Shown here piece after piece: positions 1,817 through 53,577 of a stretch of 64,000 nt of DNA; the stretch's first letter is position 1, and each line of letters starts with the position of its first letter. The position numbers and the translations under genes were made by a program. This DNA is from Alphaproteobacteria bacterium. Its GTDB lineage: Bacteria; Pseudomonadota; Alphaproteobacteria; M2410. The notes beneath the pieces are model-generated. The model ran no database searches. It saw only the letters and a list, made by a program, of their open reading frames with translations, and was not told where the DNA came from. The DNA is taken from contig JAUWTJ010000010.1 in assembly GCA_030614785.1 (NCBI GenBank), positions 615 to 64,614 on the forward strand, written 5' to 3'.

Positions 1817-1843
1817 TCAGTCCCTCAGCCATTGATGGCGAAT

Positions 1844-3022
1844 TTAACCTTCGTCTCCGGACAACAAAACCCCTGCACTGACAAGACCGCTGATTTCACC
1901 CTCATCCATAGCAATCCAGTCCTTGAGCGCAGCAACATTGTGTTCACCGCGGCGCGGGGCGCGCGAGGCACTGGTGATGCCGCTTTTGGCGTCCGAAAAC
2001 CTGTAGGGTGACTGGGTCGTGCGCCGTTTTTTACCTTCGCTGTCTTCGACCTCGACAAAGACGCCGCGCGCCTCGATGCTTGGCTGGGCAAACGACTCCT
2101 CGCCAAAATCGCGCACATCGCCCCAGGCAATGTTGACCTCGTCGAGTTTCGCCTTGAGCGCCAGGGCGCTCGGGAAGCTCATAATGTGGTCGGCAATTGC
2201 GCCCTGCCGCAAGGCAATCTTGGCCTCAAGGTCGGCGCCCTCTGGCATCTCAACGGTGAGCCCGTCCCGGTTGGAGAACACGTGCCAGAGCCATTTGATA
2301 TCACCGGCCAGGAATATTCGTTTTCCTTCCGGCGCATCCCAGACGAAGTTCTTGTTGTTCTGAGGCCAGACATCATCAAGCCCGTAGTTGGCAAAATCAT
2401 CTGTGGCATGCAGGGCATTGAGCATCGCCATATCAATATGCTGCCCCGTGCCCGTTCGGTCTGCCATTCTGAGAGCGGCAAAAACACCGACAAGCCCGTG
2501 CAGCGATGTGTAACTGTCACCGAGCGAAAACTGGATATCGGTTGGATGTCCGCCCGCGATCTCCGCCTGGCGCGCCTGAAGCCCCGTCTCGGCATGCAAG
2601 ACACCGGCATAGGCCGCCCGGTCCCGCTCCGGCCCGACCTGACCAAAGCCGGAAATCGACAGCATGACCAGCTTTGGATTGACCGCGCTCAGATCTTTCC
2701 AGCCAACGCCAAACCGGTCCATAATCCCGGGCCTGAAATTCTCAACGACGACATCGGCCTCCGCCACAAGCTTGTGAACCAGCGCGCGCGCGCCGTCTGC
2801 TTTGAGATCGAGGCAAATAGTGCGCGTGCCAATGTTCTGCTGCAAATAATAACCGGACATCTCACCGCTTCTGAGGCCGAAGTGCCGGGTGGTATCGCCT
2901 TCCGGCGGCTCGATTTTCAGAACGTCGGCGCCGAGGTCCGACAACATGCGCGTCGCAAACGGCCCGGCCAGAACCCGTGAAAAATCAAGGACCTTAAGTC
3001 CGCTGAGTGGATAGTCTTGCAT
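1844..3022 (-). CDS. CaiB/BaiF family III CoA-transferase
   Basis: LSGLKVLDFSRVLAGPFATRMLSDLGADVLKIE, ENFRPG, catalytic-Asp region SLGDSYT. Start set at MQDY (3022). Confidence 0.9.
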   Translation of the reverse strand: MQDYPLSGLKVLDFSRVLAGPFATRMLSDLGADVLKIEPPEGDTTRHFGLRSGEMSGYYLQQNIGTRTICLDLKADGARALVHKLVAEADVVVENFRPGIMDRFGVGWKDLSAVNPKLVMLSISGFGQVGPERDRAAYAGVLHAETGLQARQAEIAGGHPTDIQFSLGDSYTSLHGLVGVFAALRMADRTGTGQHIDMAMLNALHATDDFANYGLDDVWPQNNKNFVWDAPEGKRIFLAGDIKWLWHVFSNRDGLTVEMPEGADLEAKIALRQGAIADHIMSFPSALALKAKLDEVNIAWGDVRDFGEESFAQPSIEARGVFVEVEDSEGKKRRTTQSPYRFSDAKSGITSASRAPRRGEHNVAALKDWIAMDEGEISGLVSAGVLLSGDEG

Positions 3023-3112
3023 TGGTGACACCTTCCCTTGCCCCAAGAAAGACCAGCCTGCGGCCCGGTGTCAACAACAGAACGCAGAACCTCCCAGGGG
3101 AAGCCGCAGGCC

Positions 3113-4510
3113 TCACCCTTCAATCGGCTGAAACCGGGCCTGGAAAAATCGCAGGTATTCAGGCTCGTAGATCATTTCAAGCCCGCGGATTTCGGTGCGG
3201 CGCTCAAAGACATCGAGGATCGTTTCTGCAACGACATCCATATGCGCCTGCGTATAGACACGCCGTGGCAGCGTCAGCCTGACCAGCTCCAGTTTCGGGT
3301 GGCGATTTTCACCGGTTTCAGGATCGCGCCCCGCCGAGACATTGCCGCGCTCCATCGCGCGAATGCCGGCCTCCTTGTAGATCTCGGCCGCCAGCGCCTG
3401 CGCCGGGTACTGATCCTGATCAAGGTGTGGCAGGAAGGCCCGGGCATCGATAAAGATCGCGTGGGCCCCGATCGGCTTCACAATGGGCACCCCGGCGCTT
3501 TCGAGCATTTCGCCCAGATAGTAAACCTGTCCGATGCGCGCCGCTTGATGGGCTTCCTCAACACTCTCCCTGATGCCCTGGGCCATGGCCTCCATGTCCC
3601 GTCCGGCCAGGCCGCCATAGGTATGCAGACCCTCATAAACGACCACAAGGTTTTGCGCCTTGAGATAAATCTCCTCACTGTTGCAGGCAAAGAACCCGCC
3701 AATATTAACCAGAGAATCTTTCTTGGCCGACATGGTGCAGCCATCCGTCAGATTGCAAATCTCAAGCAGGATCTGTTTGACGCTCTTGTCGCCCCACCCC
3801 TCTTCGCGCTGCTGGATAAACCAGGCATTCTCCACCGTGCGCGTCGCATCAAGCATAATGAGAATGTCGTGCTTCCGGCAAAAGGCATGCAGGTCGTGCA
3901 GATTTTGCATCGAGAACGGTTGCCCCCCGGCCATATTCACATTGCCCTCCAGGGAGATATAGGGAATGTGATCAGCGCCCACGTCGCTGACCAGTTGTTC
4001 AAGCTTGCGCAGATCCACATTGCCCTTGAACGGAAATGTGCTGCCCGGCACATGCGCCTCGTCAACAATGACATCAACGAACTGTCCGCCGGAAAGCTCC
4101 TGGTGCAACCGGGTCGTGGTGAAATACATGTTGCCTGGAATAAAATCTCCTGGCCTGATGAGAATTTGCGACATCAGATTTTCCGCGCCGCGGCCCTGAT
4201 GCGTCGGCACCAGATATTTGTAGCCGTAATGTTCCTGTACAGACTCAACCAGATTGTAAAAATTCTCGCTGCCGGAATAGGCCTCATCACCAAGCATCAG
4301 AGCGGCCCATTGCCGGTCGCTCATGGCAGAGGTTCCGCTGTCGGTCAGAAGGTCAATGTAAACCTCCCGGCTGCGCAGCAGAAACGTATTATATCCGGCT
4401 TCCAACAGGGCGGCCTCGCGTTCCTCCCGCGTCGTCATATGCAGGAGTTCAACAGTTTTGATCTTGTAGGGCTCGGCCCAGCTGCGCCGTACCCGTGCTG
4501 GATTGGTCAT
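3113..4510 (-). CDS. tpl: Tyrosine phenol-lyase
   Basis: IDLLTDSGT, GDEAY, PTHQGRGAEN, SAKKD (PLP Lys). TPL-specific residues present: YFTTTR (T124), MERG (R381), LRFF (F448); tryptophanase has D, I and H at these positions. Confidence 0.88.
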   Translation of the reverse strand: MTNPARVRRSWAEPYKIKTVELLHMTTREEREAALLEAGYNTFLLRSREVYIDLLTDSGTSAMSDRQWAALMLGDEAYSGSENFYNLVESVQEHYGYKYLVPTHQGRGAENLMSQILIRPGDFIPGNMYFTTTRLHQELSGGQFVDVIVDEAHVPGSTFPFKGNVDLRKLEQLVSDVGADHIPYISLEGNVNMAGGQPFSMQNLHDLHAFCRKHDILIMLDATRTVENAWFIQQREEGWGDKSVKQILLEICNLTDGCTMSAKKDSLVNIGGFFACNSEEIYLKAQNLVVVYEGLHTYGGLAGRDMEAMAQGIRESVEEAHQAARIGQVYYLGEMLESAGVPIVKPIGAHAIFIDARAFLPHLDQDQYPAQALAAEIYKEAGIRAMERGNVSAGRDPETGENRHPKLELVRLTLPRRVYTQAHMDVVAETILDVFERRTEIRGLEMIYEPEYLRFFQARFQPIEG

Positions 4511-4624
4511 GGTGGTCTCACTTTGCGGATCTGTTTGCGGTCAACATCACAAAGAGATTATTGCAAGACAGGGAAGTTTTCAGTTCTCATTACTTGTTTT
4601 TGGGTGCAATATTGGATACTATAC

Positions 4625-9404: not shown

Positions 9405-9441
9405 ATCACTACCTCTGTTGCCCAGGTCTGGAATCGTGTTT

Positions 9442-9762
9442 ATGAACATCGATCTTGCTGCCCTGCCTCATGATGTCGATACATTGCACCGGATGATCTG
9501 CGATCTGGTTGCCGAGCAAGATGGCGAGCGCGTTGAGGCGCAGGCGGAGATCGACCGACTGCGGAATATTGTAAAGACGCTCCAGCGCAGTCAGTTCGGA
9601 CGCCGCTCCGAGCACCTTGATGATGATCAGCTCCAGCTTGCTCTTGAAGACCTTGATGCTGATATCGCCAGCGCCGTAGCAAGCCAGCCGGAAACGGACG
9701 ATGAACAGGTCAGGAATGAGCGCTTACCACCGATCGTAAGCATCCCGGGAATGCACACTTGA
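9442..9762 (+). pseudogene. tnpC: IS66 transposase TnpC, N-terminal fragment only
   Basis: LPHDVDTLHRM...LQRSQFGRRSEHLDDDQLQLALE leucine-zipper region, then runs into the right IR; the DDE domain is absent. Confidence 0.85.
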
Positions 9763-12582: not shown

Positions 12583-14124
12583 TTACTCTGTTGACGTCTC
12601 TTTCGTGTCCTTGTTCGCGCCTTGTTGTTGCTGCAGCTTCAACAGAACCCGTTTGACTTCTTCGGGGGAATTGAGAGCTGGCGGAATTGTGAATGAGAGC
12701 GGAGTGCGATAGTCATCGCCGGTTTTTATGCCGCCGTATTTGTAGAGGCTACCGGCGAGACGCAGGACCGGCTCATAGGCCTGGGGGATGATCCACAATT
12801 TGGTGCCCATTATGTCCACCTCTTCACGAGGGTCTTTCTCGATGTCAAAAATCATATGCCCATAAAGGTCGTGGTGCATGCGCGATGTTGGAGAAGGATC
12901 ATCGCCAACAAAGAACAACTTGAATTGCCTCCACTTTACGGCCAGAAGTTTCTTGTCGAGAAAGGTGATGATGTGCTCTCGGTTTGATTTTTCGCTCTTG
13001 CCGAGGAAAAAGTCGCGTTGGTCGACGCCGTCATAGGCCCGGTCTGTCGGAAAGGTTGCGTCGGCAAGCGAGGCGAAGGTCGGGAAGAAGTCGAGGATCG
13101 AGACGATCTCGTTTGTTTCTCTGCCTGAGGGGATGACACCGGGCGCACTCATGATCATTGGTGTCCGGATAGAGCCCTCATATGCACTTCCAAGGTATCC
13201 GCGATAGGGGCCGGAGTTTGAAACGGTCGGGTATTCAGATGCATCCGGTCCGTTGTCACTGGCGTAGACAATGATAGTGTTGTCGGCAAAACCTGCGTCC
13301 ACCAAAGCCTTGCGGATTTGGCCAACCCGATAATCGTGCTCTGCCATCATGTCTGCAAAGTCGCCGACACCGGTCTTGCCCTTGAAGTCCGGATTGGGAA
13401 CATAAGGATGGTGCATCAGCGACCAGGATACAAACAGGAAGAAGGGTTCCTCAGAGCCTTTGGCCTGCTTTATGTAGTTGATGGACTTCTCAGCGATCAA
13501 CTCATCCATCTTGCCGCGCATTTCCCGGTCGTAGCGGGCGATTTTCTGCACCGGACCATTTCGTTTTGATGACAAAATATACGGCCATTCGCTTTCGCGG
13601 CCCTGATAACCCTGAGCGTCATAGCGATAGACCACGCCAGTGCTAAACGGAAATCCCCACCACTCGTCAAAGCCTTGATCCGTTGGATAGCGGCCCTGGC
13701 TGTCGCCAAGGTGCCACTTTCCAAAAATGGCAGTCTTGTAACCGGCATCGGAAAGCATTTCGGCCATTGTATATTCCCAAGGCGCCAGGCCTTGAGGAAA
13801 GCCGGGAATGCCGGCGCGTCCCGTTCCAGAACGTATGGGAAGGCGTCCGGTCATGAGCGCCGAACGGGAAGGTGTGCATTCCGGTTCTACATTGAAATTT
13901 GTAAAGCGCGTACCTTCTGCGGCTAGTTGATCAAGGCTGGGCGTCGGGACCCCGCGGATTGGCCCGCCACCGTATGCGCCAAGTTCACCATAGCCAAGAT
14001 TATCGCTCAGCATAAAAACAATATTGGGGCGCCGGGGCATCTCATCTGCAGTGGCTGATGATATCGCGGCCAGATTTGTACAAACTGCAAGAAGCAGCAG
14101 GCGTGAAGTGATTGATGTATACAT
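12583..14124 (-). CDS. Arylsulfatase (Cys-type, secreted)
   Basis: PNIVFMLSDNLG, CTPSRSALMTGR, GKWHLG, SDNG; signal peptide from MYTSITS (14124). Confidence 0.92.
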   Translation of the reverse strand: MYTSITSRLLLLAVCTNLAAISSATADEMPRRPNIVFMLSDNLGYGELGAYGGGPIRGVPTPSLDQLAAEGTRFTNFNVEPECTPSRSALMTGRLPIRSGTGRAGIPGFPQGLAPWEYTMAEMLSDAGYKTAIFGKWHLGDSQGRYPTDQGFDEWWGFPFSTGVVYRYDAQGYQGRESEWPYILSSKRNGPVQKIARYDREMRGKMDELIAEKSINYIKQAKGSEEPFFLFVSWSLMHHPYVPNPDFKGKTGVGDFADMMAEHDYRVGQIRKALVDAGFADNTIIVYASDNGPDASEYPTVSNSGPYRGYLGSAYEGSIRTPMIMSAPGVIPSGRETNEIVSILDFFPTFASLADATFPTDRAYDGVDQRDFFLGKSEKSNREHIITFLDKKLLAVKWRQFKLFFVGDDPSPTSRMHHDLYGHMIFDIEKDPREEVDIMGTKLWIIPQAYEPVLRLAGSLYKYGGIKTGDDYRTPLSFTIPPALNSPEEVKRVLLKLQQQQGANKDTKETSTE

Positions 14125-14149
14125 GTCTACCCCGAAGTGGTTTGGAGAT

Positions 14150-16387
14150 TTAGCGATTGCCCAGACGTATAGTAACGTTTTCGATTTTTCCCTCAAATTC
14201 ATACGGGGAGTTGTATTGGGAGCCGACGGCAGTATTTGCATCCCTGCCAATGTCCATGCCTTCATGAGAAATTCGTGCCGCCATTGTCTTTGGCATTTCA
14301 AGTGTTCCTGCGACCTCGCCGTTTATCAACAAAGTCGCCGTTCCCATCAACTTTCCCGTCTTGTCGAACCGGAGCGAGATTTGAGATGCGCCACGAGGCA
14401 CCTTTGTATCCGATGTGACTTTGTACATCGTTCCGACACTTTTGACGTTGGCAAAATAGTTATACTCATAGACGGCACGTCCCTTGTGAATGTAAAGGAC
14501 CAGACCGGAATCGTGATTGCCGTTGGCAAATAGCACACCATTTTCGGATCCGGTTGGCCGGTCAATGCTGGCCGTGATCGAAAAACTCCTGTCGATAAAG
14601 TCAGGTGTTGCAAAGTCAGTAACGTGCGAGGCTCTCGGGTAGTAGATGAATTCGTGCTTTTTCGGGTTCTTTGCAGCTCTCTTCTTCATCTCCTCTTTGA
14701 TTTTCGGGCCGGGATTTTCCAGATCAACCATCAATGCCGCATTGACCTGTTCGCCTTCGCGGCGCCAAACCTCTTTCATCCGGGCGAGTTTTTCGGGATA
14801 TGTGTTGGCAAGATCAGTTGCGTGGGTGAAATCTTCCTCAAGATTGAACAGGGACCAGACATCGTCCGTATATTTTGTTCCGCGCTTATGAACCGCAGTA
14901 GCCATCCACCCGTGATCATAGATGCCGCGATTGTGAGCCATACGGTAGAACTGTGTTTTCCTGGCGTCAGGAGCCTCTGCCTCTGCAAAGGCGTATGTCA
15001 TGCTTTGTCCATCGACCGGGAGTTGCTGCTTGCCATCGACGCGGTCTGGTATCTCGATCCCAAGGAGATCGAGGACTGTGGGCATCACGTCACTAACAAA
15101 ATGATACTGCTCCCGAATGCCGCCTTTCGCACCCCATTTTTCATTCAGACCGTTGACGATAAAGGGAACTGAAATGCCGCCACCAGCAGCATGCTGTTTG
15201 AAATAGGGGAAAGGCGTGTTGCTAACTTGCGCCCACCCGAGGGGGTAGTTGGGAAGCGTATTGGGCCCACCGATCTCGTCGAGGCGGCGCAGGATATCGT
15301 CAGCTGTTTCAAAAATGCCATTGTTGTTGGTTGTATGATTGATCGATCCGCCGGGGCTGCCTTCCTGACTGCCGCCATTGTCGGACAAGACGATGACGAT
15401 GGTATTGTCGAGGACACCGAGCACTTCAAGCTCACTCAGGAGCCGTCCGATTTCTTCGTCTGTTTGGGTGAGGAAGCCGGCATAGGTCTCTTGAAGGCGC
15501 GCATAGACTTGTTGCTGCGTCGTGTCCAACGTTTCCCACGGCTTTACCCTTGCATCCGTTGCGGGAAGACGGGACGATTGCGGAACAAGGCCAAGGTCCT
15601 TCTGTCGCTGAAAGCGTTCGGTGCGCACTACGTCCCATCCACGATCATACCGGCCGCGCTGTTCGATCAAAAGGGATTGCGGTGCCTGGTGCGGCGCGTG
15701 CATCCCCGGTGTCGCAAGATACATAAAAAAGGGGCGATCCGGCGTGTAGGATACATGATTGTGTGCCATCTCGATCGCATGATCGACCAGATCAACTGTG
15801 AGATTATAACCCTCGGGGTATGTTTCTGAAATAACCTGGTTGTCACGGACCAGTTCTGGTGCGAACTGATCCGTCGAACCCGTCATAAAGCCGTAGAATC
15901 GATTAAAACCTTTGCCAAGGGGCCAATGGGTAAAGGGCCCTGCGGGCTGGCTATCCTTGCGCGGTGCCAAGTGCCATTTGCCAATGGCGTAAGTGCTGAT
16001 CCCTTCGTCCTGAAGGATTTGCGCAAGGGTTGCGGATTGGTCACTGATCCGACCACGGAAGGCGGGGAATGCCGGGCCAAAATCATAGCGAGCGATCAGG
16101 CCCATGCCGACCCGATGGGGGTCGCGTCCTGTGAGCAGAGAGGCGCGTGTCGGCGAACAGGTGGGTGTTGCATGGAAATTGTTGAATGTCAGTCCATCAG
16201 CAGCAAGGGCGTCAATATTGGGTGTCTCGATTTCCGAGCCATAGGCTCCCAGGTCGCCGTAGCCGACGTCGTCGAGAAGAATCAAAAGGATGTTGGGGCG
16301 CTCGCTCTCCTGCATAGAATGAGCGGGTCCTGAATAGAAAACACCAATTAACAGGAGTGCCCGAAGGGCCTTTAGTTGAAACCGCAT
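14150..16387 (-). CDS. Arylsulfatase (AtsA-like, Cys-type) with a C-terminal beta-sandwich extension
   Basis: PNILLILLDDVG, CSPTRASLLTGR, GKWHL, SDNG; signal peptide from MRFQLK (16387) with GGAGGG RBS. Confidence 0.92.
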   Translation of the reverse strand: MRFQLKALRALLLIGVFYSGPAHSMQESERPNILLILLDDVGYGDLGAYGSEIETPNIDALAADGLTFNNFHATPTCSPTRASLLTGRDPHRVGMGLIARYDFGPAFPAFRGRISDQSATLAQILQDEGISTYAIGKWHLAPRKDSQPAGPFTHWPLGKGFNRFYGFMTGSTDQFAPELVRDNQVISETYPEGYNLTVDLVDHAIEMAHNHVSYTPDRPFFMYLATPGMHAPHQAPQSLLIEQRGRYDRGWDVVRTERFQRQKDLGLVPQSSRLPATDARVKPWETLDTTQQQVYARLQETYAGFLTQTDEEIGRLLSELEVLGVLDNTIVIVLSDNGGSQEGSPGGSINHTTNNNGIFETADDILRRLDEIGGPNTLPNYPLGWAQVSNTPFPYFKQHAAGGGISVPFIVNGLNEKWGAKGGIREQYHFVSDVMPTVLDLLGIEIPDRVDGKQQLPVDGQSMTYAFAEAEAPDARKTQFYRMAHNRGIYDHGWMATAVHKRGTKYTDDVWSLFNLEEDFTHATDLANTYPEKLARMKEVWRREGEQVNAALMVDLENPGPKIKEEMKKRAAKNPKKHEFIYYPRASHVTDFATPDFIDRSFSITASIDRPTGSENGVLFANGNHDSGLVLYIHKGRAVYEYNYFANVKSVGTMYKVTSDTKVPRGASQISLRFDKTGKLMGTATLLINGEVAGTLEMPKTMAARISHEGMDIGRDANTAVGSQYNSPYEFEGKIENVTIRLGNR

Positions 16388-16420
16388 TGTCAAACCCTCC
16401 GCGAACAAGTCAGGAACTTA

Positions 16421-16467
16421 TTATTGACATTTATGTCGATAACTCTTATCTACATAAATGTCAATAA
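16421..16467. promoter_or_regulatory. 47-bp near-perfect palindrome carrying two mirror-image TTGACA promoters; probable TetR operator
   Basis: TTATTGACATTTATGT-c-GATAA-ctc-TTATC-t-ACATAAATGTCAATAA (22-bp arms, 1 mismatch). Confidence 0.8.
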
Positions 16468-16478
16468 GGGATAAGATT

Positions 16479-17165
16479 GTGGCCACCACAAGAAAACGAC
16501 GCAAACCGGCAGAGGCGCGAGCTCTGGTATTAAAAACGGTTGAGGAAAGGCTCGTGAAAGACGGTCCGGGGGCCTTTAGCCTTCTTGACGTTGCCGAGCA
16601 GTCGGGGCTTGCCCACTCTACCATCCTGCACCACTTTGGCAGCGTGGAAGCACTCAAGGGTGCCGTCACCCGGCATATTCTGGAACGTGTCCTGAAAGAT
16701 GCCATCGCGATCCTGCAGCCCGAGCAGCCCCAGGTTCTGACCATCGACCGGATCATTGCGCTGTTTATGGAACAGATGGACAATGACGAAACCGGTCACC
16801 TGTTATCCTGGCTTGTTCTCAATCCCGTAGATCAGAAGAACTGGACCGGCGATCAGGCAAACGCCATCTCGCAACATTTGCAGGAGCTGGCAGCGATTGC
16901 AGATGAGCGCGTCAGCCTTGGAGCTGAGGAGAATGTGCTTGTCAGCACGAATGACAACCTGTCACAAGGCCAGGCCGTTATCTTGATGGTTGGGACGTCA
17001 CTCATCGGACACTTGCTTGTCGGCGCCTTTTTGGGTCGCGCGCTTGGTCTGCCGCAGGCGGGCTACAAGCAGACCTATATTGGTTGGCTGTCTGATCTTG
17101 TAGCCGCACTGGTTGGCGTCAATCCGGCGGTGCGCGAAGACAGGAAAAAGCAGACAGAAGAGTAG
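16479..17165 (+). CDS. TetR/AcrR family regulator
   Basis: FSLLDVAEQSGLAHSTILHHFGS HTH. GTG 16479 with AAGGGA RBS is preferred over ATG 16458, which lies inside the palindrome. Confidence 0.88.
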   Translation: MATTRKRRKPAEARALVLKTVEERLVKDGPGAFSLLDVAEQSGLAHSTILHHFGSVEALKGAVTRHILERVLKDAIAILQPEQPQVLTIDRIIALFMEQMDNDETGHLLSWLVLNPVDQKNWTGDQANAISQHLQELAAIADERVSLGAEENVLVSTNDNLSQGQAVILMVGTSLIGHLLVGAFLGRALGLPQAGYKQTYIGWLSDLVAALVGVNPAVREDRKKQTEE

Positions 17166-17219: not shown

Positions 17220-17627
17220 CTAACCCGTTGCTGAGCAAGCGCGTATTATATCCTGCCCGATACGGACCGGTTTCAGGCTTGAGGCTGATATGCAGCACCA
17301 CACCGATTTGGCTTCAACAACAATGCCATCACCGCGTTTGATGATCATGTCATAATAGGCGCGAACACCCCTGACCTTTCTCAAGATGACATCGACACAG
17401 AGACTGTCGTCAAGGAAAGACTGCTGTCGGTAGTCGATCTCATGTCGTGTTGCCATCCAGAGATATTGTGTGAGCATGAGCGGGGTTGCCCGGCTCTGCC
17501 ATTGCGCTGTTACACCGGCCTGTATCCACTTTAGATAGGACGCATTGTTCACGTGGTTCAGATGATCAATGTCATCGCTGTTTGGCGTCACGTACCACTT
17601 GAAGATTTCATCAATCATTTTGATCAC
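17220..17627 (-). CDS. Acyl-CoA thioesterase (4HBT/YbgC hotdog fold)
   Basis: DDIDHLNHVNNASYLKW motif. Confidence 0.85.
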   Translation of the reverse strand: MIKMIDEIFKWYVTPNSDDIDHLNHVNNASYLKWIQAGVTAQWQSRATPLMLTQYLWMATRHEIDYRQQSFLDDSLCVDVILRKVRGVRAYYDMIIKRGDGIVVEAKSVWCCISASSLKPVRIGQDIIRACSATG

Positions 17628-17647
17628 CTTTTGAGTCTAGGGCAGCT

Positions 17648-18979
17648 TCAGGCGGACGCAGGAAACACAGGCCAGCGGTCGACAATTTCACCTTCATCAT
17701 AGACTGCAATATCGCCAAATTGAAGGAATACCGCCTCACTTTGATGGGGTCGAAGAAAAACGAAATCATTTGGATCAAGGTCAACTTCGGAAGGTCCATT
17801 GAGCATCTCCTGATTACTTGATCGCCCGAACAACCCATTATAGTGCAGCCCTTGAGGTGAGACGGGATCGGCCATCCAATGGCCTCCGTAAATGAAAATA
17901 GTCTTGCGGCTGTTCGGGTCCCAAAGCTCGGTTATTTTGTTAAGGCCTCCCAGAAGAGGGACCCTTATACCCGACATGCTCTTGATGACCGGTGCCGCAA
18001 TAAATGAGGCGGGCTGGAATCCTTCCAGCATATCGGTATCGAAGTGTGTTGGTTTTACGAGAGCCGAGCCAACGGAAACTTCATTTGCCAGGCTGGTGTC
18101 CTGATAAAGGCGGTAGGTCGGACTTCCTGCAGCGTTACGGGTCATCAGGTCTGGATTGTAGTCTGCGCCCATTACCTCCTGCGCAGTCTTGAGAGCGTCA
18201 TTATACAGGCCCCAGGCCGCATTTGTCGCCCGCGCACGAAGGCCGAGCACTTTTGGAACAGCGGCCAGATGGGGTTCGTAACCCATGAACCCGGAGAAGG
18301 TGAGGCGCTTGTTTGCGGCGATCATTGTGATGGCTTCGGCAATATCTTCATTGCCTTCAAAGCCTCCCCGGTGCAGCCCGACGTCAATCTCGAGGTTGAG
18401 ATTCAATTTCAGATCCCGGGCCTCGGCCACGGCAGCGTATTCCGCAATCCGCCGGGGCGTATCGACCAGCCATTGGATGCCGTTCAGGGCCTCGTTTGCG
18501 GTCGGTTGTTGGGTTTTGTAAAAACCGGCCACGGCAGCAACCGGCAGCGGTTTACCGAGCAGAATATCTGTCGTGCCTGGCCGGGTAACAAGGTGCTTCA
18601 GGAATTCAAGATTGAACACCATCATTCGGTTTGATCCGGAGCGCCCGGCGACCTCGTCCAGCAGGTTATGACTGGGCAGAGACTTTGAGACGATCCGGTA
18701 CTTCATGCCAGAGGGCAAATTCTGCATCAATGTGTCGATGTTACTGTGCAGGCGCGCGCGATCAATGATCAGAGTTGGTGCCGCAATCCCGGCCCGCTTC
18801 AAGGCATCAGACATTCGCGTGAAGTAGGGGTCAACCGGTGCGCTGGCGTCGCGTGGCCTGGCAAGCAAGAGGCCGCCCGTGGCCGCGAGCACGCCGCTGG
18901 CGGCCAGGACCTTGCGACGCGAATAGTTACCTGGCACTCTTGCAAGTATTTCTTCGGCTCTATGCCTGAATGTCGACAT
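17648..18979 (-). CDS. DSD1-family PLP-dependent enzyme (alanine-racemase-like barrel) with a Tat motif
   Basis: RIVSKSLPS (PLP Lys), EIDVGLHRGGF, GFMGYEPH, AGSPTY; N-terminal SRRKVLAASGVLAA. Confidence 0.8.
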   Translation of the reverse strand: MSTFRHRAEEILARVPGNYSRRKVLAASGVLAATGGLLLARPRDASAPVDPYFTRMSDALKRAGIAAPTLIIDRARLHSNIDTLMQNLPSGMKYRIVSKSLPSHNLLDEVAGRSGSNRMMVFNLEFLKHLVTRPGTTDILLGKPLPVAAVAGFYKTQQPTANEALNGIQWLVDTPRRIAEYAAVAEARDLKLNLNLEIDVGLHRGGFEGNEDIAEAITMIAANKRLTFSGFMGYEPHLAAVPKVLGLRARATNAAWGLYNDALKTAQEVMGADYNPDLMTRNAAGSPTYRLYQDTSLANEVSVGSALVKPTHFDTDMLEGFQPASFIAAPVIKSMSGIRVPLLGGLNKITELWDPNSRKTIFIYGGHWMADPVSPQGLHYNGLFGRSSNQEMLNGPSEVDLDPNDFVFLRPHQSEAVFLQFGDIAVYDEGEIVDRWPVFPASA

Positions 18980-20363
18980 CAAACACCTTCCTGAGGTAGG
19001 AGTTGAGAAGCTTTGCCTTTGGGTCAACTTCCTGTCGTACCCGTTTGAAGTCATCCCAATGCCTGTACAGCTCTTTGAAATCAGCCGACTCGAGGGTGTT
19101 CAGTTTCCCCCTATGCGGCCTGCCGCCACGGCGCTTCATCACGGGCTCGATATCAGTGAACAGAAACTGATAATCGTCTTCATGGTGGACGTGAACTGCG
19201 ATCGAAATGCGGTCACAGCCCTCAAAGGGGCTGAGCCAGGCTGTGTCACCCTTGATGTAACGCACTTCAATAGGGAAAAACACGTCGCGATGATCGCGTT
19301 CCAGGATCCCGATGATCTCGTCGAGCGTATCGAAAGCCTGAGCAACGGGCATGTGGTACTCCAGTTCATTGAAGCGCATGGTCCGCTCCGAAGATAACAG
19401 TTTCCAGCTTGTGTCGGAAACGGTTTCCGCTTCGATATCCTTGATGGCGGAGCGACCAAGGGCTCTGCGTAGAGGCGGGATAAACGAGACTGTGTCCCTC
19501 AGTTTCTTCAGCGACACCAAGCCTTCATTGTCATCGGACATGGAGTTTCCACTTGGCGCGTTGTCGGTTTTGTTGTGGGCAATAGCCAGGCAATGACCTG
19601 TAAACGGGACATAGAAGAACTCGAACGACCGATGCGTTTCAAAGAGCTGCGTCGCGCGGGACATGAGGGTATCATATGGTTCCACCCATGTTTTCCGCTC
19701 CAGATAGTGAGAGGGTTCAACGTGATATCCAGCCTGGGTAATGATTCCCAGAGCCCCCAGGGAGACTTGCGCCGCCGCAAAAAGATCGGCGTTCCGCTCA
19801 GACGAGCACTCGAGAATATCGCCATTGGCTGCAACGAGACGCAGCGATCTGACATCAGCCGACATGGATGGGGCATTCTTTCCTGACCCGTGGGTCGCCG
19901 TTGAAATAGCCCCGGCCAGTGTCTGTTTGTTGATGTCGGGCAGATTTGGAAATGCCACGCCGTGCGTTTCCAGTTCCGGTGAGAGGCGGGCCAGTTTACC
20001 GCCTGCGTTGAGGACAGCCAGGCCGGCTTCCGGATCGACAGATTTCACTCCTCTGATCCGGTCAAGAGAGATCATGGTTGTGTCGGTGGGCACGAGCGGC
20101 GAAAAGCTGTGACCGGAACCCACAGCACGAACCGGTCCTGAACTTTCCATCAATATCGTTCTTAATTCATCTTCGTTGCGTGGGCCAAAACGGTTCGCCG
20201 GATAGCTGATTTGATTGCCAGACCAGTTTCGCCAAGCCAAGATATCGCCGTGCGAAGTCTCGGGATTTGGTGAGGATGTGGCGCGCTGTCGCAGGAGAGC
20301 CACCCCGGTTAGACCAGCGGCCCCGGCTACTCCGAGAAGTGCGAGAACTTTACGTCGGTCCAT
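18960..20363 (-). CDS. FAD-linked oxidase, D-arabinono-1,4-lactone oxidase (ALO)-like, with a Tat motif
   Basis: WRNWSG, RAVGSGHSFSP, QTLAGAISTATHGSG, RFNELEY, FFPIEVR, GGRPHRGK; N-terminus MDRRKVLALLG. Confidence 0.88.
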   Translation of the reverse strand: MDRRKVLALLGVAGAAGLTGVALLRQRATSSPNPETSHGDILAWRNWSGNQISYPANRFGPRNEDELRTILMESSGPVRAVGSGHSFSPLVPTDTTMISLDRIRGVKSVDPEAGLAVLNAGGKLARLSPELETHGVAFPNLPDINKQTLAGAISTATHGSGKNAPSMSADVRSLRLVAANGDILECSSERNADLFAAAQVSLGALGIITQAGYHVEPSHYLERKTWVEPYDTLMSRATQLFETHRSFEFFYVPFTGHCLAIAHNKTDNAPSGNSMSDDNEGLVSLKKLRDTVSFIPPLRRALGRSAIKDIEAETVSDTSWKLLSSERTMRFNELEYHMPVAQAFDTLDEIIGILERDHRDVFFPIEVRYIKGDTAWLSPFEGCDRISIAVHVHHEDDYQFLFTDIEPVMKRRGGRPHRGKLNTLESADFKELYRHWDDFKRVRQEVDPKAKLLNSYLRKVFDVDIQA

Positions 20364-20743
20364 CAGTTTTCCTTCGCTGCCTGGTTAAGCGATCGTCCGC
20401 CCAGGTATTGAATAAACAATTCCAGGTCCTGCTTTGTGCAAGCCGCGCAGCTGCCGAGCGCAGGCATTCCCTCAAATCCGTTGATCGTGTGAGAGTAGAG
20501 AGCGTCAAAACCTTTTGCCCATCTGGCATCCCAGGACGCACCGTCCCCGAAGAGCGGTGCCCCGGAGTCTTTGTCGCCGTGACAACCAACGCAAGTGACG
20601 TCGAAGAGCTCGAGCTGCTCCTCGGTCAATTCGGGCGGCGGACCATAGGTTTGCACGCTTTCCCGCTCAGCATTGCAAGCGTTCAAGGTGGCCACGCAGG
20701 CAAAGAGGCAAAGCCACCGGGATATGGTGATGTGCGTTTTCAT
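20363..20743 (-). CDS. Monoheme cytochrome c5, probable lipoprotein
   Basis: CVGCH heme motif, GAP, WDARWAKG, GMPALG; lipobox-like LNAC; TGATG overlap with the oxidase start. Confidence 0.85.
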   Translation of the reverse strand: MKTHITISRWLCLFACVATLNACNAERESVQTYGPPPELTEEQLELFDVTCVGCHGDKDSGAPLFGDGASWDARWAKGFDALYSHTINGFEGMPALGSCAACTKQDLELFIQYLGGRSLNQAAKEN

Positions 20744-20779
20744 AAAAGTAGTTATAACTATCTTTATGAAAACAGGCAA
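20736..20779 (-). promoter_or_regulatory. 38-bp palindromic operator overlapping a TTGCCT-N17-TATAAC promoter and the cytochrome ATG
   Basis: GTTTTCATAAA-AG-TAGTTATAACTA-TC-TTTATGAAAAC (19-bp arms, 2 mismatches); -35 at 20779-20774, -10 at 20756-20751. Confidence 0.72.
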
Positions 20780-20784
20780 GTGAC

Positions 20785-21414
20785 CTATGTCACAATCACA
20801 AAGAAAGCACTGATCGCAAGGGCCGCATCGCGGATTACAGCTTTTCGATTAAGGCCGGGCTCGTCGAATATGAGTTCCATCGTTGCATACCCAAGGTCGA
20901 TGGCCAGACGGGATTGCCGGTAGACTTCGGCCCGGGTTGAGTTTGGAAGGGACGGCGCTGTGGTATCAGCAATGGCCTTGGCCATCGCGGCATGGGACTC
21001 AGTACGGATACTCAGAAGGCTTGGAATTGCGCGCAGGCTTCGCGTGATCCACGGGCCACCCGGAAACGCCTCGGTTGTGCGGACGGTTTCGGAGATTATT
21101 TTTTCAATCTGGTGGACGCTGATAGAGAATACGTCTTGTTCTGTCTGCTCTTCGATGATGGTGAGGATGAGAGTGTTCTGCTTCTCCATCAAGCGATTCC
21201 CCAGAACTTTCAGGATGTCGTATTTGTCCGAAAAATAGCGATAGTAAGCCGGGGGCGTGACACCGGCGCGTTCAACGATCGCATTTGTCGAGATACTCTC
21301 GATACCGATCTCTTCAAGAAGTTCTCCCGTTGCCATCAACAGTTTTTCATAGGTTGCACGTGCGCGCGCTTGCCGGGGTTCGCGTGGTCCATTGCTTTGT
21401 GCGGCTGAAGACAT
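20785..21414 (-). CDS. TetR/AcrR family regulator
   Basis: RQARARATYEKLL, ISTNAIVERAGVTPPAYYRYFSDK. Confidence 0.92.
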   Translation of the reverse strand: MSSAAQSNGPREPRQARARATYEKLLMATGELLEEIGIESISTNAIVERAGVTPPAYYRYFSDKYDILKVLGNRLMEKQNTLILTIIEEQTEQDVFSISVHQIEKIISETVRTTEAFPGGPWITRSLRAIPSLLSIRTESHAAMAKAIADTTAPSLPNSTRAEVYRQSRLAIDLGYATMELIFDEPGLNRKAVIRDAALAISAFFVIVT

Positions 21415-21466: not shown

Positions 21467-21500
21467 TTGACTGCACCTGAAAAGAATAGTTTATACTATC
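21467..21500 (+). promoter_or_regulatory. Candidate sulfatase promoter (TTGACT-N19-TATACT) overlapped by a variant of the TetR operator core
   Basis: TAGTTTATACTATC at 21487-21500 versus TAGTTATAACTATC at 20749-20762 (11/14). Confidence 0.45.
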
Positions 21501-21571: not shown

Positions 21572-23263
21572 ATGTCCAGCCCAAACAAGAGTGAGGCGAT
21601 GATGAGTGAGAATCTGGATCCGCAAACCGGCAGGGCCGCAGATCTTCCTGGTGTTATTCGCGCCCGGATAAGGCAAGCTGTTTCAGCCCGCCCCCTGGCG
21701 GCGACGGCTTGGGTTGTCGCAGGGGTTGGCCTCGGCATTCTTCTTACCACCCTTGTTCTTCTCACGTTCCCCGACCCGGAACGCAATGGCCTGACGGCAG
21801 AGGACTTTGCCGACAAGACTTTGCCAGCTTCAGTGAAGCTGGTCGTTGAGAAGCGCACGCGTAGACCGAATGTGGTTTTCATTCTTGCCGATGATCTGGG
21901 TTACGGGGACATTAAAGCCTATGGCCCAACGCCGATCAATACGCCTAATCTTGATCAACTGGCGCAAGAGGGCGTTCGTTATACCAGCTTTTACGCCGCA
22001 GCTTCCCTTTGCTCACCTTCACGAGCAGGATTGCTGACAGGCCGATACGCCTTGCGAACGGGCATTTCATACCCGTTCCAAAATGAGGAAGTCAAAGGTT
22101 TGGGCGGATGGGTCGAAAGCCGGTTTGTCTCTTTGTTGGCCTACCTTGGCACTGCAGATCTCAAGTCGGGTGGAAACCTCGTCAACGGCTTACCGCCGTC
22201 GGAATTAACTATCGCGGAAGGTCTGAAGCAAGCGGGATATCGCACCGGCATCGTCGGCAAGTGGCATCTGGGTGACTTCAAACGTTGGCCGAAATATCAT
22301 CCTCATAAAAATGGATTTGACTGGTTCGTCGGGTTTAATGCGTCCAATGACGATTGGCCTGTTGCCTTTTATGACAACGATCAGGAGATCATTGCCGATA
22401 TCGGGTTCGAACAGGAAGCCTACACACAGATTTTCACGCAAGAAGCTGTTGAATTCATTGAGCGAAACCAGGAACAACCCTTCTTCTTGTTCTTCTCCCA
22501 CAAGGATCCCCATCAACCGTTCTTTCCTTCAAGTGGTTTTGCCGGAAAATCGAAAGGCGGTAGTTACGGCGATGCGGTCGAGGAACTGGATGGCAGTGTT
22601 GGCACTATCCTTGAAACTCTTGAGCGCCTTGATCTTGCCGAGAATACGGTTGTCATATTCACGAGTGATAACGGACCCTGGTATGAGGGAAATCCTGGAG
22701 GCTTACGCGGCCGTAAGGGCATGAGCTATGAGGGCGGGTACAAGGTGCCTTTCCTCATGCGATATCCCGGGCGAGTTGAGCCTGCAACGGTCAATGATGC
22801 CCCGGCTATGGGGATTGATTTGTTGCCTTCGATATTTGCAATGGCCGGTGTCCGCCTGCCTGATGACAGAGTGATTGATGGCATCAGCCTGGTTGACGAG
22901 ACCGGTGCTCCCCTGGCGAGTGACGTTGATCGCGGACCGATTTATTTTTTCAGCGGATATGACTTTGAGGCTGTGCGTCAGGGGCGGTACAAATTGATTG
23001 AACGCAACAGCACCTATGGGTGGCCGATTCCTCTCGACAAACCGGTCGGCTTTGCGGCAGTGACAATGCCCCGATATTCACCTGAAGGTGACGAGCGATC
23101 GATTCCGAAACTCAATTCCTGGCCAAAACTCTACGACGTCAATCTGGATCCGTCCGAGGCCTACAATCTTTCCGAATTGTATCCCGACGAGGTGACACGA
23201 CTTGAAGAGCAACTTGAAACCTGGCGCACAGAGTTCTATCGGGATCCTCGTGGGCGCCAGTGA
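21572..23263 (+). CDS. Sulfatase (Cys-type) with an N-terminal membrane anchor
   Basis: RPNVVFILADDLGYGD, CSPSRAGLLTGR, GKWHLG, SDNGPW; TM segment WVVAGVGLGILLTTLVLLTF. Confidence 0.92.
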   Translation: MSSPNKSEAMMSENLDPQTGRAADLPGVIRARIRQAVSARPLAATAWVVAGVGLGILLTTLVLLTFPDPERNGLTAEDFADKTLPASVKLVVEKRTRRPNVVFILADDLGYGDIKAYGPTPINTPNLDQLAQEGVRYTSFYAAASLCSPSRAGLLTGRYALRTGISYPFQNEEVKGLGGWVESRFVSLLAYLGTADLKSGGNLVNGLPPSELTIAEGLKQAGYRTGIVGKWHLGDFKRWPKYHPHKNGFDWFVGFNASNDDWPVAFYDNDQEIIADIGFEQEAYTQIFTQEAVEFIERNQEQPFFLFFSHKDPHQPFFPSSGFAGKSKGGSYGDAVEELDGSVGTILETLERLDLAENTVVIFTSDNGPWYEGNPGGLRGRKGMSYEGGYKVPFLMRYPGRVEPATVNDAPAMGIDLLPSIFAMAGVRLPDDRVIDGISLVDETGAPLASDVDRGPIYFFSGYDFEAVRQGRYKLIERNSTYGWPIPLDKPVGFAAVTMPRYSPEGDERSIPKLNSWPKLYDVNLDPSEAYNLSELYPDEVTRLEEQLETWRTEFYRDPRGRQ

Positions 23264-23291: not shown

Positions 23292-25592
23292 CTAACGTGA
23301 CAAACGAGTCACTAAATCCCTATAGGTCGGATCATCGGGAAAGACTCTCGCCAGCCGTTCAGCGTATTTTTGCAGTTCAGGAAAATCATGTTGTTGATTG
23401 GCAAGAGTTAATCCCAGGTTCAGAAGGTCCGGATCAAACGGGTACTCCTCCAGTGCAGTATCCAGTATTGTGTGGGCCTTTGCGAGATGACCGTAGGATT
23501 GAAGGGCCACCGCGTAGACATATGAAAATCGAGCAGTAATGGGGGCCTGTTTTGCTGCGGCCTCCAAATGAATCATGGCCTCAACAGTGTTTTTCTGGCG
23601 AATGTAGGCAAGGCCCAAAGCATGGTGGATTGAAGCATCTCCCTTCGTGGTCTTGAGCCCCTCAAGCAAAACATTCATTGCCTCTTCGTCTTGACCCTGC
23701 ATCCGCAGAAGTTCCGCGAGGTTTACCCATGAAGGTGCAAAGGCAGGATCTATGTCCATGGCTTTTCGATAAGCTGCGGCGGCTTTTTCCATGTCACCTT
23801 GCCCCTGATAGACGAGAGCACGGTTGAGCCGTCCTTCGCCACGCCAGGCACTTTCTTCATTGGCCTCAAGAAGCTCAGCCATTGCCACTTTGAATGTCTC
23901 TGACAATTCATCTGACATGGCTGCCTGGGGGATGTCAGCAAGGGCAGTTGCCGCCTCAATTCGAACGGCTTTCAGGTCGTCCGAGAGTAGCGGTGCGAGA
24001 TAGTCCACGCGTTCCTTTTCTGAAAGCATGGTCAGAGCCCTGATTGCTCCCATACGAAGAAGAGGCTCCTCACTTGACAAGTGCGACCTGGCAACCGAGA
24101 TCAAGGCGAGATCAGCTACGCCAGGCACAAGGCTGAGGGCTGTTGCCCTGGTCAGCGCGGGCTCCGCCTCGTCTTCGATCAGGTCCCGCAGAGGCTTCCG
24201 GGCAGCAGGGTCGCGCCGACGTGCTGCGGAAAGAGCCCTGATATGAGACGCTGCATCGGGCTCTGATCCATACCACCGCGTGATATGTCCGGCGGCAGTA
24301 TCGTTGGTCATGTCCTTGTGGCACCTGGTGCAGGCGTTTGGCGTGTTCAGGTCCCGGGATAAATCCGGGCGAGGAACTTTGAAGCTGTGATCCCGACGTG
24401 CGTCGATACCCATGTAAGTTGTTTCTGGCATGTGGCAATTGACGCAGAGGGCTCCGGTTGATCCGCTTTGATGGCGGTGATGGACAGGGGCGTCGAAAAT
24501 CTTTGGAGAATGGCAGGTCGTACATAGTGAGTTGCCATTCTGCTTGAGATCCAGACTGTGGGCGTTATGACAATTGGTGCAGGTCACCCCGGCTGCCGCC
24601 ATTTTGCTTTGCATGAAAGAGCCCCAGACGTAAACTTCATCAAGGATTTGCCCGTCTGGATGATACAGGCCAGGGTCGAGAAGACCAGGAGAAAACTGAT
24701 CCAGAAAAGCGAGACGTGGATCAATATGTTTGGTCAACGGCGTGCGGCGCGAATGGCATGCTGCACACACAGCAATCTCACCTTTCTCGTGCGATTCACC
24801 CTGGTTTCTGGCGGTGTGTTCATCGTCATCACGTTCAAACCTTGTTTTCTGCGAATCCGAAAACCGGAGAACATTGTCACTGGCAGAGCCTTTATCAAAC
24901 ACCTTTGTCGAACGGACTATATCATTCATTGCTTCAATGTGAGTTTTGGTTTCACCATGGCAGGAGGCACAGGAGACATTGATGGCGGAAGCTGTCGAGC
25001 TAAAAAGGTCATTCGACACATCATAATTTCGAGAGAGACCTGATGAATGGCAGTCTGCACACATACCGTTCCAGTTTTGACTTGGCGAAAGCCAGTGCAG
25101 CCGATCCCCGCGCGGTGTTACATTTTCCTCATAGAGGTGAAACCAACGATCTCCGCCCTCAGATGCTGATCGCGTATCCCAGGCCCATGGGAGAGCTTGC
25201 AGTTTTCCTTGTTTGGTTTCAACGAGATATTGTTGCAGGGGGAAAACACCAAAAGTATAACGAATACGGAATGTCTCTTGTAATCCCGGTTTGTCAGTTT
25301 GTGAAACAACCGCCAGGAAGATATCGCCAGTCTGAGTAAATACGGTTTGCTCTCCCGAGTGGGTCAGTGCAACATTCCTGAAATCGCCCAAAACAGTTGA
25401 TGTATTAGCATGATCCATGGCTTTGGCATGGTGGGACTTGCGCCAGGCAGTGACCTCGGCCCGGTGACAGGCCGCGCAAGCCTCTTCATTACTGTCGGCA
25501 ACAATTAGTGGTGCGGCGTTTGCCACCGTATGCATACCCCATAGGGCAAGTACGAGTATTGAGACAGGGGTTCTGAACACGTTTTTCTCCAC
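23292..25592 (-). CDS. Periplasmic octaheme c-type cytochrome fused to HEAT- and TPR-like repeats
   Basis: Eight CxxCH motifs (CAACH, CADCH, CASCH, CAACH, CTNCH, CTTCH, CVNCH, CTRCH); signal peptide; C-terminal TPR patterns such as AAAAYRKAMDIDPAFAPSWVNLA. Confidence 0.88.
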   Translation of the reverse strand: MEKNVFRTPVSILVLALWGMHTVANAAPLIVADSNEEACAACHRAEVTAWRKSHHAKAMDHANTSTVLGDFRNVALTHSGEQTVFTQTGDIFLAVVSQTDKPGLQETFRIRYTFGVFPLQQYLVETKQGKLQALPWAWDTRSASEGGDRWFHLYEENVTPRGDRLHWLSPSQNWNGMCADCHSSGLSRNYDVSNDLFSSTASAINVSCASCHGETKTHIEAMNDIVRSTKVFDKGSASDNVLRFSDSQKTRFERDDDEHTARNQGESHEKGEIAVCAACHSRRTPLTKHIDPRLAFLDQFSPGLLDPGLYHPDGQILDEVYVWGSFMQSKMAAAGVTCTNCHNAHSLDLKQNGNSLCTTCHSPKIFDAPVHHRHQSGSTGALCVNCHMPETTYMGIDARRDHSFKVPRPDLSRDLNTPNACTRCHKDMTNDTAAGHITRWYGSEPDAASHIRALSAARRRDPAARKPLRDLIEDEAEPALTRATALSLVPGVADLALISVARSHLSSEEPLLRMGAIRALTMLSEKERVDYLAPLLSDDLKAVRIEAATALADIPQAAMSDELSETFKVAMAELLEANEESAWRGEGRLNRALVYQGQGDMEKAAAAYRKAMDIDPAFAPSWVNLAELLRMQGQDEEAMNVLLEGLKTTKGDASIHHALGLAYIRQKNTVEAMIHLEAAAKQAPITARFSYVYAVALQSYGHLAKAHTILDTALEEYPFDPDLLNLGLTLANQQHDFPELQKYAERLARVFPDDPTYRDLVTRLSR

Positions 25593-53497: not shown

Positions 53498-53577
53498 TGT
53501 CGTTCTCCAAATGATGGCTTATCACTACCAGGCCGGACGACAAACATGGTCAACCAGCGTCATGTCCGCTTTGGGTT

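Follow-up and report, generated by a model that had tools for sequence, protein, structure and literature searches.

A cluster of five genes in the genome of an alphaproteobacterium of the GTDB lineage M2410 (17220-21414, all on the minus strand) encodes a TetR-family regulator, a c5-type cytochrome, a flavoprotein of the VAO/ALO type, a fold-type III enzyme dependent on pyridoxal 5'-phosphate (PLP), and a 4HBT thioesterase. What substrate do these proteins act on, in which compartment of the cell, and in what order? The cluster lies in a window of 64,000 nucleotides (nt), which here means the whole stretch of DNA that was analysed (GenBank assembly GCA_030614785.1, contig JAUWTJ010000010.1, positions 615 to 64,614 of the forward strand), and positions are counted from the first letter of this window. 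An earlier note, made from the sequence alone, described an uncharacterised periplasmic route in which a PLP step feeds a flavin oxidation coupled to the cytochrome. The genes it named and their overlapping or tight spacing are confirmed by the gene map and the domain calls. The route is not an uncharacterised one, as the cluster is homologous to the named sphBCD operon, whose substrate class, the sphingoid bases, is known genetically.

Judged by its genes, the system is a TetR-regulated variant of sphBCD that is widespread in marine Alphaproteobacteria. That this TetR-regulated sphBCD homologue works in the periplasm to oxidise and cleave sphingoid bases, which are long-chain 2-amino-1,3-diols, is a proposal that we hold to be about evenly balanced.

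Relationship to sphBCD of Pseudomonas aeruginosa

In P. aeruginosa, sphBCD is part of the SphR regulon and is induced by sphingosine through SphR (PMC3900636). For cells to grow normally with sphingosine, sphinganine, or phytosphingosine, and for sphingosine depletion, the sphB and sphC genes are required, and SphB is a predicted lipoprotein that resembles cytochrome c5 (PMC11893366). SphC is exported into the periplasm through twin-arginine translocation (Tat), and its export is lost in a tat mutant and upon the change of RR to KK (PMC6085387). The kind of operon and its genetic substrate class in Pseudomonas are already known. A full-text literature search on Tat, alanine racemase, and oxidoreductases linked to flavin adenine dinucleotide (FAD) gave nothing relevant.

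The P. aeruginosa locus used for comparison (L084) was recovered via the fragment that bears the published SphC signal peptide, one of two fragments matched. In this locus, genes with the domains Cytochrome_CBB3, FAD_binding_4/ALO, and Ala_racemase_N are followed by sphA (Phenol_MetA_deg) and the AraC-type sphR. As assembled, its sphC (L084:8001-9394) is split into a piece of 37 amino acids with the Tat signal and a piece of 436 amino acids, which is a frameshift or an assembly error.

The three central genes of the window cluster and P. aeruginosa sphB-sphC-sphD (PA5328-PA5326) have the identical order, lie on one strand, and are tightly coupled. The window PLP enzyme is 45% identical to P. 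aeruginosa SphD over 402 amino acids (E 2e-121). The flavoprotein is 38% identical to SphC over 426 amino acids (E 4e-99), and the cytochrome is 40% identical to SphB over 70 amino acids (E 2e-23). Because both the gene order and the sequences of SphB, SphC, and SphD match, the three genes are very probably homologues of sphBCD, and they are probable orthologues.

Both operons encode a predicted c5-type lipoprotein cytochrome, a VAO/ALO flavoprotein with a Tat signal, and an Ala_racemase_N PLP enzyme. They also have in common the twin-arginine motif on SphC, where it is proven in Pseudomonas, and on SphD, provided that the Pseudomonas gene is read from an upstream GTG. The operons differ in their regulators, since the window regulator belongs to the TetR family and has its own candidate palindromic operator, whereas Pseudomonas uses the AraC-type SphR. 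In addition, the window cluster has an appended thioesterase gene.

Conservation, regulation, and export

A search of 1.84 billion cluster representatives yielded 308 members of the PLP-enzyme family at E ≤ 1e-30. Gene neighborhoods were compared in a sample of 80 genome loci, retrieved out of 524 matching stretches in total, in which the relatives of the PLP enzyme are 51-59% identical to it. The sampled loci come mostly from Hyphomonadaceae and also include Maricaulis, Parasphingorhabdus/Sphingorhabdus, Kordiimonas, Parvibaculaceae, and one Parahaliea. An ALO-type flavoprotein gene lies directly upstream of the PLP gene in 77 of the 80 loci, usually with overlapping reading frames. The linkage of oxidase and PLP enzyme, for which a check of neighborhood conservation had been suggested, is thus kept. 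A homologous TetR gene (35-51% identity) adjoins sphC-sphD in 37 loci and is usually divergent, and a homologous cytochrome c gene is found directly upstream of the flavoprotein gene in 17. When all open reading frames (ORFs) within ±8 kb were clustered across the loci, only these two genes recurred, and no conserved transporter, dehydrogenase or aldehyde dehydrogenase, or ceramidase was found. The evolutionarily fixed unit is sphC-sphD, not sphB-sphC, and the cytochrome is optional. The alphaproteobacterial family often drops the cytochrome and always keeps sphD, whereas Pseudomonas genetics points the opposite way.

Three sampled loci (L020, L047, and L079) hold SphD homologues without an adjacent SphC, and no consistent alternative partner is found among the neighbors. 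These include a wax-ester synthase/diacylglycerol acyltransferase gene and a gene with an FGE-sulfatase domain in L047, and a ketoacyl synthase gene and a GNAT acetyltransferase gene in L079.

The thioesterase, which the earlier note had counted as a member of the system, does not belong to the conserved pathway. A similar gene lies downstream of sphD in 2 of the 80 loci, and the protein has no signal peptide. The gene is probably co-transcribed with the cluster, and its product would be a local cytoplasmic add-on. A 4HBT_2 thioesterase gene also lies divergently beside P. aeruginosa sphB (L084:6962-7426, minus strand). Its product is 17% identical to that of the window (E 0.006), and a functional link is doubtful.

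The solved structures related to the TetR protein (Mce3R and EthR) align to its DNA-binding domain only and give no hint of a ligand. The pattern ATAGT-N4-ACTAT has four matches with at most one mismatch in the window, compared to 0.25 expected. Two copies flank tetR. One is the perfect palindrome upstream of the gene, and the other, with one mismatch, forms the center (20748-20761) of a 38-bp palindrome within which the sphB ATG falls. The two further one-mismatch matches are found at 4609-4622 and 53487-53500.

Among the related loci, the pattern occurs upstream of the first structural gene in 35 of 77, compared to about 1 expected. Its distance to this gene is 12 to 126 nt, mostly 40-75 nt. 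The pattern also co-varies with the regulator, being present in 31 of the 37 loci that have the TetR gene and in 4 of the 40 that do not. Because the occurrence of the motif tracks the presence of the TetR gene, there is good comparative evidence that ATAGT-N4-ACTAT is the putative TetR operator. The TetR control assigned to the cluster at the outset is strengthened by this co-occurrence, and the TetR protein is predicted to repress the operon. As long as no ligand is bound, it would occupy the two sites that flank tetR, one upstream of this gene and the other directly ahead of sphB. It would be released by a lipid, which may be a sphingoid base or a product.

The N-termini of the two enzymes suggest where they work. 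The oxidase begins with M-D-RRKVLA, which is followed by 19 uncharged residues and then a basic c-region with RQR. The PLP enzyme has S-RRKVLA, 17 uncharged residues, and then a basic c-region, RPRDASA/P, with a cleavage-type site (ASA/P). The RRKVLA twin-arginine hexapeptide that had been pointed out in both proteins is indeed identical and is read directly from the two sequences. The Pfam TAT_signal model matches the PLP enzyme below threshold (E 0.025), and no match to the oxidase was reported. The twin-arginine pair is invariant in all 26 aligned SphD relatives, and almost all partner flavoproteins of the related loci have an (S/T)RR motif. Together with the Tat-dependent export of Pseudomonas SphC (PMC6085387), this conservation supports the predicted periplasmic placement of the system.

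The signal is also found in Pseudomonas SphD when the start of its gene is reconsidered. The gene caller starts P. aeruginosa sphD (L084:9408-10685) at an internal ATG, at 9477. The upstream GTG at 9408 has a good Shine-Dalgarno sequence and gives MNRRKFMFAGLGAGALLAGTAAW..., which adds MNRRKFMF and a hydrophobic stretch. The NRRxF motif is present in 107 of 107 long-form SphD entries from Pseudomonas, and 13 entries called from a later Met are without it. PA5326 goes unmentioned in the main text of the Tat-substrate survey. SphD is predicted to be a Tat substrate or a Tat-inserted anchor. Since it has a conserved twin-arginine signal, both enzymatic steps probably take place outside the cytoplasm.

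The wider SphD family is more varied. An RR motif with a hydrophobic stretch is present in only 31 of 108 near-full-length representatives. In other members, the N-terminus is hydrophobic but has no RR and leads into the same (R/K)PxD...YF motif, or the N-terminal extension is absent. Exported, anchored, and possibly cytoplasmic forms seem to exist within the family. Because some members are without RR or without the extension, export of SphD would be the trait of a subgroup.

Predicted chemistry and competing explanations

The flavoprotein matches PF01565 (79.5 bits), PF04030 (167.5 bits), and TIGR01679 (471 bits versus a cut-off of 292). Among solved structures, it is related to alditol and xylitol oxidases (2vfr, E 1e-34; 8ot8, E 1e-38), and it belongs to the same ALO subgroup as plant L-galactono-1,4-lactone dehydrogenase (GALDH; E 5e-29). 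Its GSGHSF segment aligns with His46 of the Streptomyces coelicolor alditol oxidase AldO, the histidine that links FAD covalently in that enzyme. The G(H)S motif is kept in 76 of 76 aligned flavoproteins, though the flanking residues vary slightly. AldO is selective for the terminal C1 hydroxyl and oxidizes glycerol through glyceraldehyde to D-glycerate (PMC8788829). In the periplasm, AldO shows activity only if Tat has exported it (PMC2690846).

The window flavoprotein and AldO share the FAD_binding_4 and ALO domains, the GSGHSF histidine for 8-alpha-N-histidyl FAD, and presumably the oxidation of a terminal primary alcohol. AldO itself is cytoplasmic and monomeric, uses O2, and acts on soluble polyols. 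In contrast, the window flavoprotein has a native Tat signal and a partner gene that encodes a cytochrome c, and genetics ties its Pseudomonas homologue to lipid amino-diols.

The cytochrome has a CVGCH heme motif and a C-terminal cysteine pair (SCAAC). Cytochrome c5 entries (1cc5 and 8smr_L) are among its best solved relatives (E 1e-9 to 9e-9), and the label c5 it had been given is appropriate. The solved entry 8smr contains cytochrome c5 together with subunits of a cbb3 oxidase. The lipobox ascribed to the cytochrome holds better for the family than for the window protein. In each of the 17 homologous cytochromes of the related loci, the signal peptide ends in a lipobox-type motif of the form [A/G/S]-C (LSAC, LAAC, LVAC, MGAC, and others), whereas that of the window protein ends in the non-canonical TLNAC, which has Asn at -2 and fits a lipobox only loosely.

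p-Cresol methylhydroxylase (PchFC) and GALDH use cytochrome c as electron acceptor. They are, like the window flavoprotein, members of the VAO family and would resemble it in passing electrons to a c-type cytochrome rather than, or besides, O2. Their substrates are different, and the window cytochrome is a separate, predicted lipoprotein that is optional in the family. The window flavoprotein has a proline (NLPD) at the oxygen gatekeeper site of the VAO family, which corresponds to Ala105 of AldO, and P. aeruginosa SphC has alanine there. As Leferink et al. reportedly found in 2009, glycine or proline at this site goes with oxidase activity. The residue was considered as a marker of cytochrome presence and was rejected, since proline is found in 73 of 76 sequences, with or without an adjacent cytochrome gene. 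The proposed coupling of flavin oxidation to cytochrome c5 agrees with the requirement for both sphB and sphC in P. aeruginosa (PMC11893366), but it does not extend to all loci, as the cytochrome gene is optional.

The PLP enzyme is harder to place. It is 14-18% identical to any characterised enzyme other than Pseudomonas SphD. Its N-terminal barrel aligns with that of the D-3-hydroxyaspartate aldolase BhcC (E 2.8e-5 with the single sequence), and a profile matches BhcC at E 2.5e-9 versus E 0.02 or weaker for racemases. The PLP lysine K99 (YRIVSKSLPS) aligns with the lysine of the BhcC segment MHKS. R21, R22, and K99 are invariant in the alignment of 26 SphD relatives. A sequence search of the PDB with the C-terminal 123 amino acids gave chance matches only. 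Pfam at E 10 found nothing in the protein beyond the barrel except the weak TAT_signal, and no DSD1 model on the C-terminal domain.

An AlphaFold model of the enzyme has a mean predicted local distance difference test score of 73. In Foldseek, its two-domain fold superposes over ~400 columns on D-threonine aldolases, BhcC, D-threo-3-hydroxyaspartate dehydratase, and alanine racemases, which are about equally close, at 11-18% identity. The designation as a DSD1-type enzyme therefore stands for the N-terminal barrel, which aligns to BhcC, but not for the C-terminal domain, which fits no DSD1 model, and the fold is as near to alanine racemases. In the segment RP(H)QSE, which we take to be a candidate for the DSD1-type metal site, Q413 and E415 are kept and His412 varies among the 26 sequences.

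With the D-threonine aldolase, BhcC, and DSD1 group, the window enzyme shares the alanine-racemase-type N-terminal barrel, the equivalent position of the PLP lysine, and the overall two-domain fold (template modelling score 0.63-0.74 normalised to the target). The specificity of this group for D-configured beta-hydroxy amino acids also suits the predicted SphC product. It differs from the group in its low identity and in a C-terminal domain that is unrecognisable by sequence. Moreover, the histidine of the D-threonine aldolase segment AYHG aligns with a glutamate in the window segment GYEPH. The window enzyme also carries an export signal, and we know of none in the solved members of the group. 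By these comparisons, SphD is a distinct, divergent branch of the fold-type III enzymes. Sequence alone cannot decide between aldolase, racemase, and dehydratase. On the structural and stereochemical fit, we predict a D-specific beta-hydroxy-alpha-amino-acid aldolase.

How would the two enzymes work on a sphingoid base? Tat would export SphC in folded form with its FAD covalently bound, and SphC would oxidize the C1 primary alcohol. Like alditol oxidase acting on glycerol, it may do so in two steps, first to the aldehyde and then to the acid. SphC would hand its electrons to SphB, the c5 lipoprotein, which would relay them to a terminal oxidase, and O2 may be the acceptor where SphB is missing. 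Oxidation of C1 of a (2S,3R) sphingoid base to the acid would give a (2R,3R) beta-hydroxy-alpha-amino acid that resembles D-allo-threonine. By our own Cahn-Ingold-Prelog derivation, the descriptor changes because the new carboxyl group becomes the substituent of higher priority, though the geometry is unchanged. A product of the D-allo-threonine type fits the substrate class of the D-threonine aldolases, which are among the nearest structural relatives of SphD. Tat-exported SphD would then split the (2R,3R) acid into glycine and a fatty aldehyde. C1 oxidation with a subsequent aldolase cleavage into glycine together with a long-chain aldehyde has been proposed for Pseudomonas (PMC3900636).

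This order is the reverse of the one first suggested for the cluster, in which the PLP step feeds the oxidase. Oxidation probably comes before the PLP step, as is suggested by the stereochemistry, by the action of AldO, the closest characterised oxidase, on C1 alcohols, and by the hypothesis already published. SphC is also placed upstream of SphD because P. aeruginosa accumulates sphingosine when sphBC is missing, whereas the loss of sphingosine does not depend on sphD. The scheme differs from the eukaryotic route, in which a kinase is followed by sphingosine-1-phosphate lyase. In the SphC-SphD scheme, an alcohol would be converted to a D-beta-hydroxy-alpha-amino acid and this to glycine and a fatty aldehyde.

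Several points weigh against the degradation of sphingoid bases by this scheme. In the window, tblastn found no match to SphR or to SphA, the porin of the Pseudomonas locus, and no homologue of the ceramidase gene cerN was found there. No lipid-related gene is conserved in the neighborhood of the sampled loci. With only 38-45% identity to the Pseudomonas proteins, the window proteins may have a different substrate. The authors of the Pseudomonas work warn that orthology beyond the genus is uncertain, and deletion of sphC in Caulobacter crescentus has almost no phenotype. P. aeruginosa can do without sphD under the conditions used, and the study could not identify the product of its sphingosine metabolism (PMC11893366). 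The metal site of DSD1 (His-x-Cys/Asp) and the C-terminal domain are not recognisable by sequence in SphD, and the fold is equally close to racemases and to D-threonine aldolases. Finally, the gatekeeper proline occurs with or without an adjacent cytochrome gene, so that cytochrome and O2 are both candidate acceptors of electrons.

Some of these points would be accounted for if the same machinery served another substrate in marine Alphaproteobacteria, such as a small hydrophilic 2-amino-1,3-diol, an amino-alditol, or a compound of the glucosamine or glucosaminate type. The likeness to sphBCD would then be one of chemistry only. The modest identity, the absence of SphR, SphA, and ceramidase homologues, the caution about orthology, and the weak C. 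crescentus phenotype all agree with this. Moreover, the closest characterised oxidases act on soluble polyols, and the sulfatase genes that flank the cluster point to the use of polysaccharides in the window genome. The sulfatase context is not conserved in other loci, however, and the order of the three genes is identical to sphBCD. SphD is 45% identical, full length, to Pseudomonas SphD, far from the level at which it matches other characterised enzymes. The sampled neighborhoods hold no conserved sugar or amino-acid transporter or downstream catabolic gene, which is more in keeping with detoxification or a role in membrane lipids than with a nutrient pathway. We consider a different substrate of this kind to be unlikely. 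The substrates named in the earlier note (D-serine, glucosaminate, and aldonolactones) are less likely than long-chain 2-amino-1,3-diols. Routes for glucosaminate, aldonolactone, and D-serine, and a role in peptidoglycan D-amino-acid metabolism, were set aside after the homology to sphBCD emerged.

It is very unlikely that the first step, be it a dehydration, an aldol cleavage, or a racemisation of a beta-hydroxy or amino substrate, falls to the PLP enzyme and that the flavoprotein oxidizes its product and passes electrons to cytochrome c5. Fold-type III enzymes do include dehydratases, aldolases, and racemases, and the reaction order is not fixed by the gene order. The dispensability of sphD in P. 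aeruginosa could also mean that the enzyme merely widens the supply of substrate. Enzymes of the ALO/AldO type oxidize alcohols, however, and the products of DSD1-type enzymes (keto acids, glycine, and aldehydes) suit them poorly as substrates. In a free sphingoid base, the amino carbon has no carboxylate beside it, and an enzyme like D-threonine aldolase cannot cleave it before C1 is oxidized. The accumulation of sphingosine without sphBC in P. aeruginosa, where sphD is not required for its disappearance, also argues against this order.

Still less probable is a role of SphD as a racemase or epimerase of amino acids in the periplasm, comparable to the broad-spectrum racemases whose D-amino acids serve to remodel the cell wall, with co-expression as its only link to the oxidase. 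The fold and profile matches do include alanine racemases and a broad-specificity racemase, and lytic transglycosylase genes adjoin the pair in two related loci, but the profile favors aldolases, the reading frame overlaps with sphC in nearly every genome, and no peptidoglycan gene is conserved across the loci.

Gene layout, surroundings, and significance

The coordinates of the cluster are listed in Table 1. The stop codon of the cytochrome gene and the ATG of the oxidase gene have the single base 20363 in common, and the oxidase and PLP genes overlap by 20 nt. Gaps of 29 nt and 41 nt separate the PLP gene from the thioesterase gene and tetR from the cytochrome gene, respectively. An intergenic region of 157 nt separates tetR from a divergent sulfatase gene. 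Two start codons have alternatives. The ORF list gives a TTG at 20779 for the cytochrome, and the longest ORF of the PLP gene begins at 19054, whereas its ATG at 18979 is backed by the alignment of homologues.

Table 1. Genes and palindromes of the TetR-regulated sphBCD-like cluster (window positions)
Feature	Position	Strand	Evidence or remark
TetR-family regulator, 209 amino acids, first gene of the cluster	20785-21414	-	TetR_N, E 6e-11
SphB-like monoheme c5-type cytochrome, 126 amino acids from ATG	20363-20743	-	Cytochrome_CBB3, E 1e-11; CVGCH
SphC-like flavoprotein, 467 amino acids	18960-20363	-	FAD_binding_4 and ALO; TIGR01679
SphD-like fold-type III PLP enzyme, 443 amino acids	17648-18979	-	Ala_racemase_N, E 2e-16
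4HBT_2 / YbgC-FadM-like acyl-CoA thioesterase, 132 amino acids	17220-17618	-	Pfam and NCBIfam
Perfect operator-like palindrome ATAGT-N4-ACTAT	21486-21499		72-85 nt upstream of the tetR start
38-bp palindrome, 19-nt arms, 89% complementary, no spacer	20736-20773		Between the tetR stop and the sphB start

On either side of the cluster lie sulfatase genes, three in all (12583-16408 and 21572-23263), a context that is not kept in the related loci. The two upstream sulfatase ORFs overlap by ~150 nt as listed, and the first one probably starts later. A second, unrelated TetR-family gene (16458-17165, plus strand) converges on the thioesterase gene and has no counterpart in the related loci. Just past the divergent sulfatase gene, an exported multiheme cytochrome c of 766 amino acids with eight CXXCH motifs and a C-terminal half of TPR/HEAT repeats is encoded (23292-25592, minus strand). 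Near the start of the window (221-4510), genes for a GMC oxidoreductase, a family III CoA-transferase, and a beta-eliminating lyase, a PLP enzyme of the tryptophanase/tyrosine phenol-lyase type, are found together.

A broader proposal, which we put forward tentatively and consider somewhat doubtful, is that SphC and SphD form a self-contained, ATP-independent "sphingoid-base lyase" pathway that is periplasmic or membrane-tethered. The pair would be the conserved core of this pathway in hundreds of marine alphaproteobacterial species, many of them from sphingolipid-making lineages. It would be under the control of a previously undescribed lipid-sensing TetR protein that acts via ATAGT-N4-ACTAT, and its electrons would go to a c5 lipoprotein or to O2.

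The comparative data sharpen the open question of sphBCD by adding the SphC-SphD core, the export signal of SphD, the stereochemical fit, and a definable operator. The twin-arginine signal of SphD is stripped by some database start-codon calls. A second, unrelated type of regulator, the TetR protein with its definable operator, is a simple handle for finding the inducer. If the proposal is true, the system would be a bacterial route for the degradation of sphingoid bases, and it would bear on resistance to host antimicrobial lipids and on marine sphingolipid turnover.

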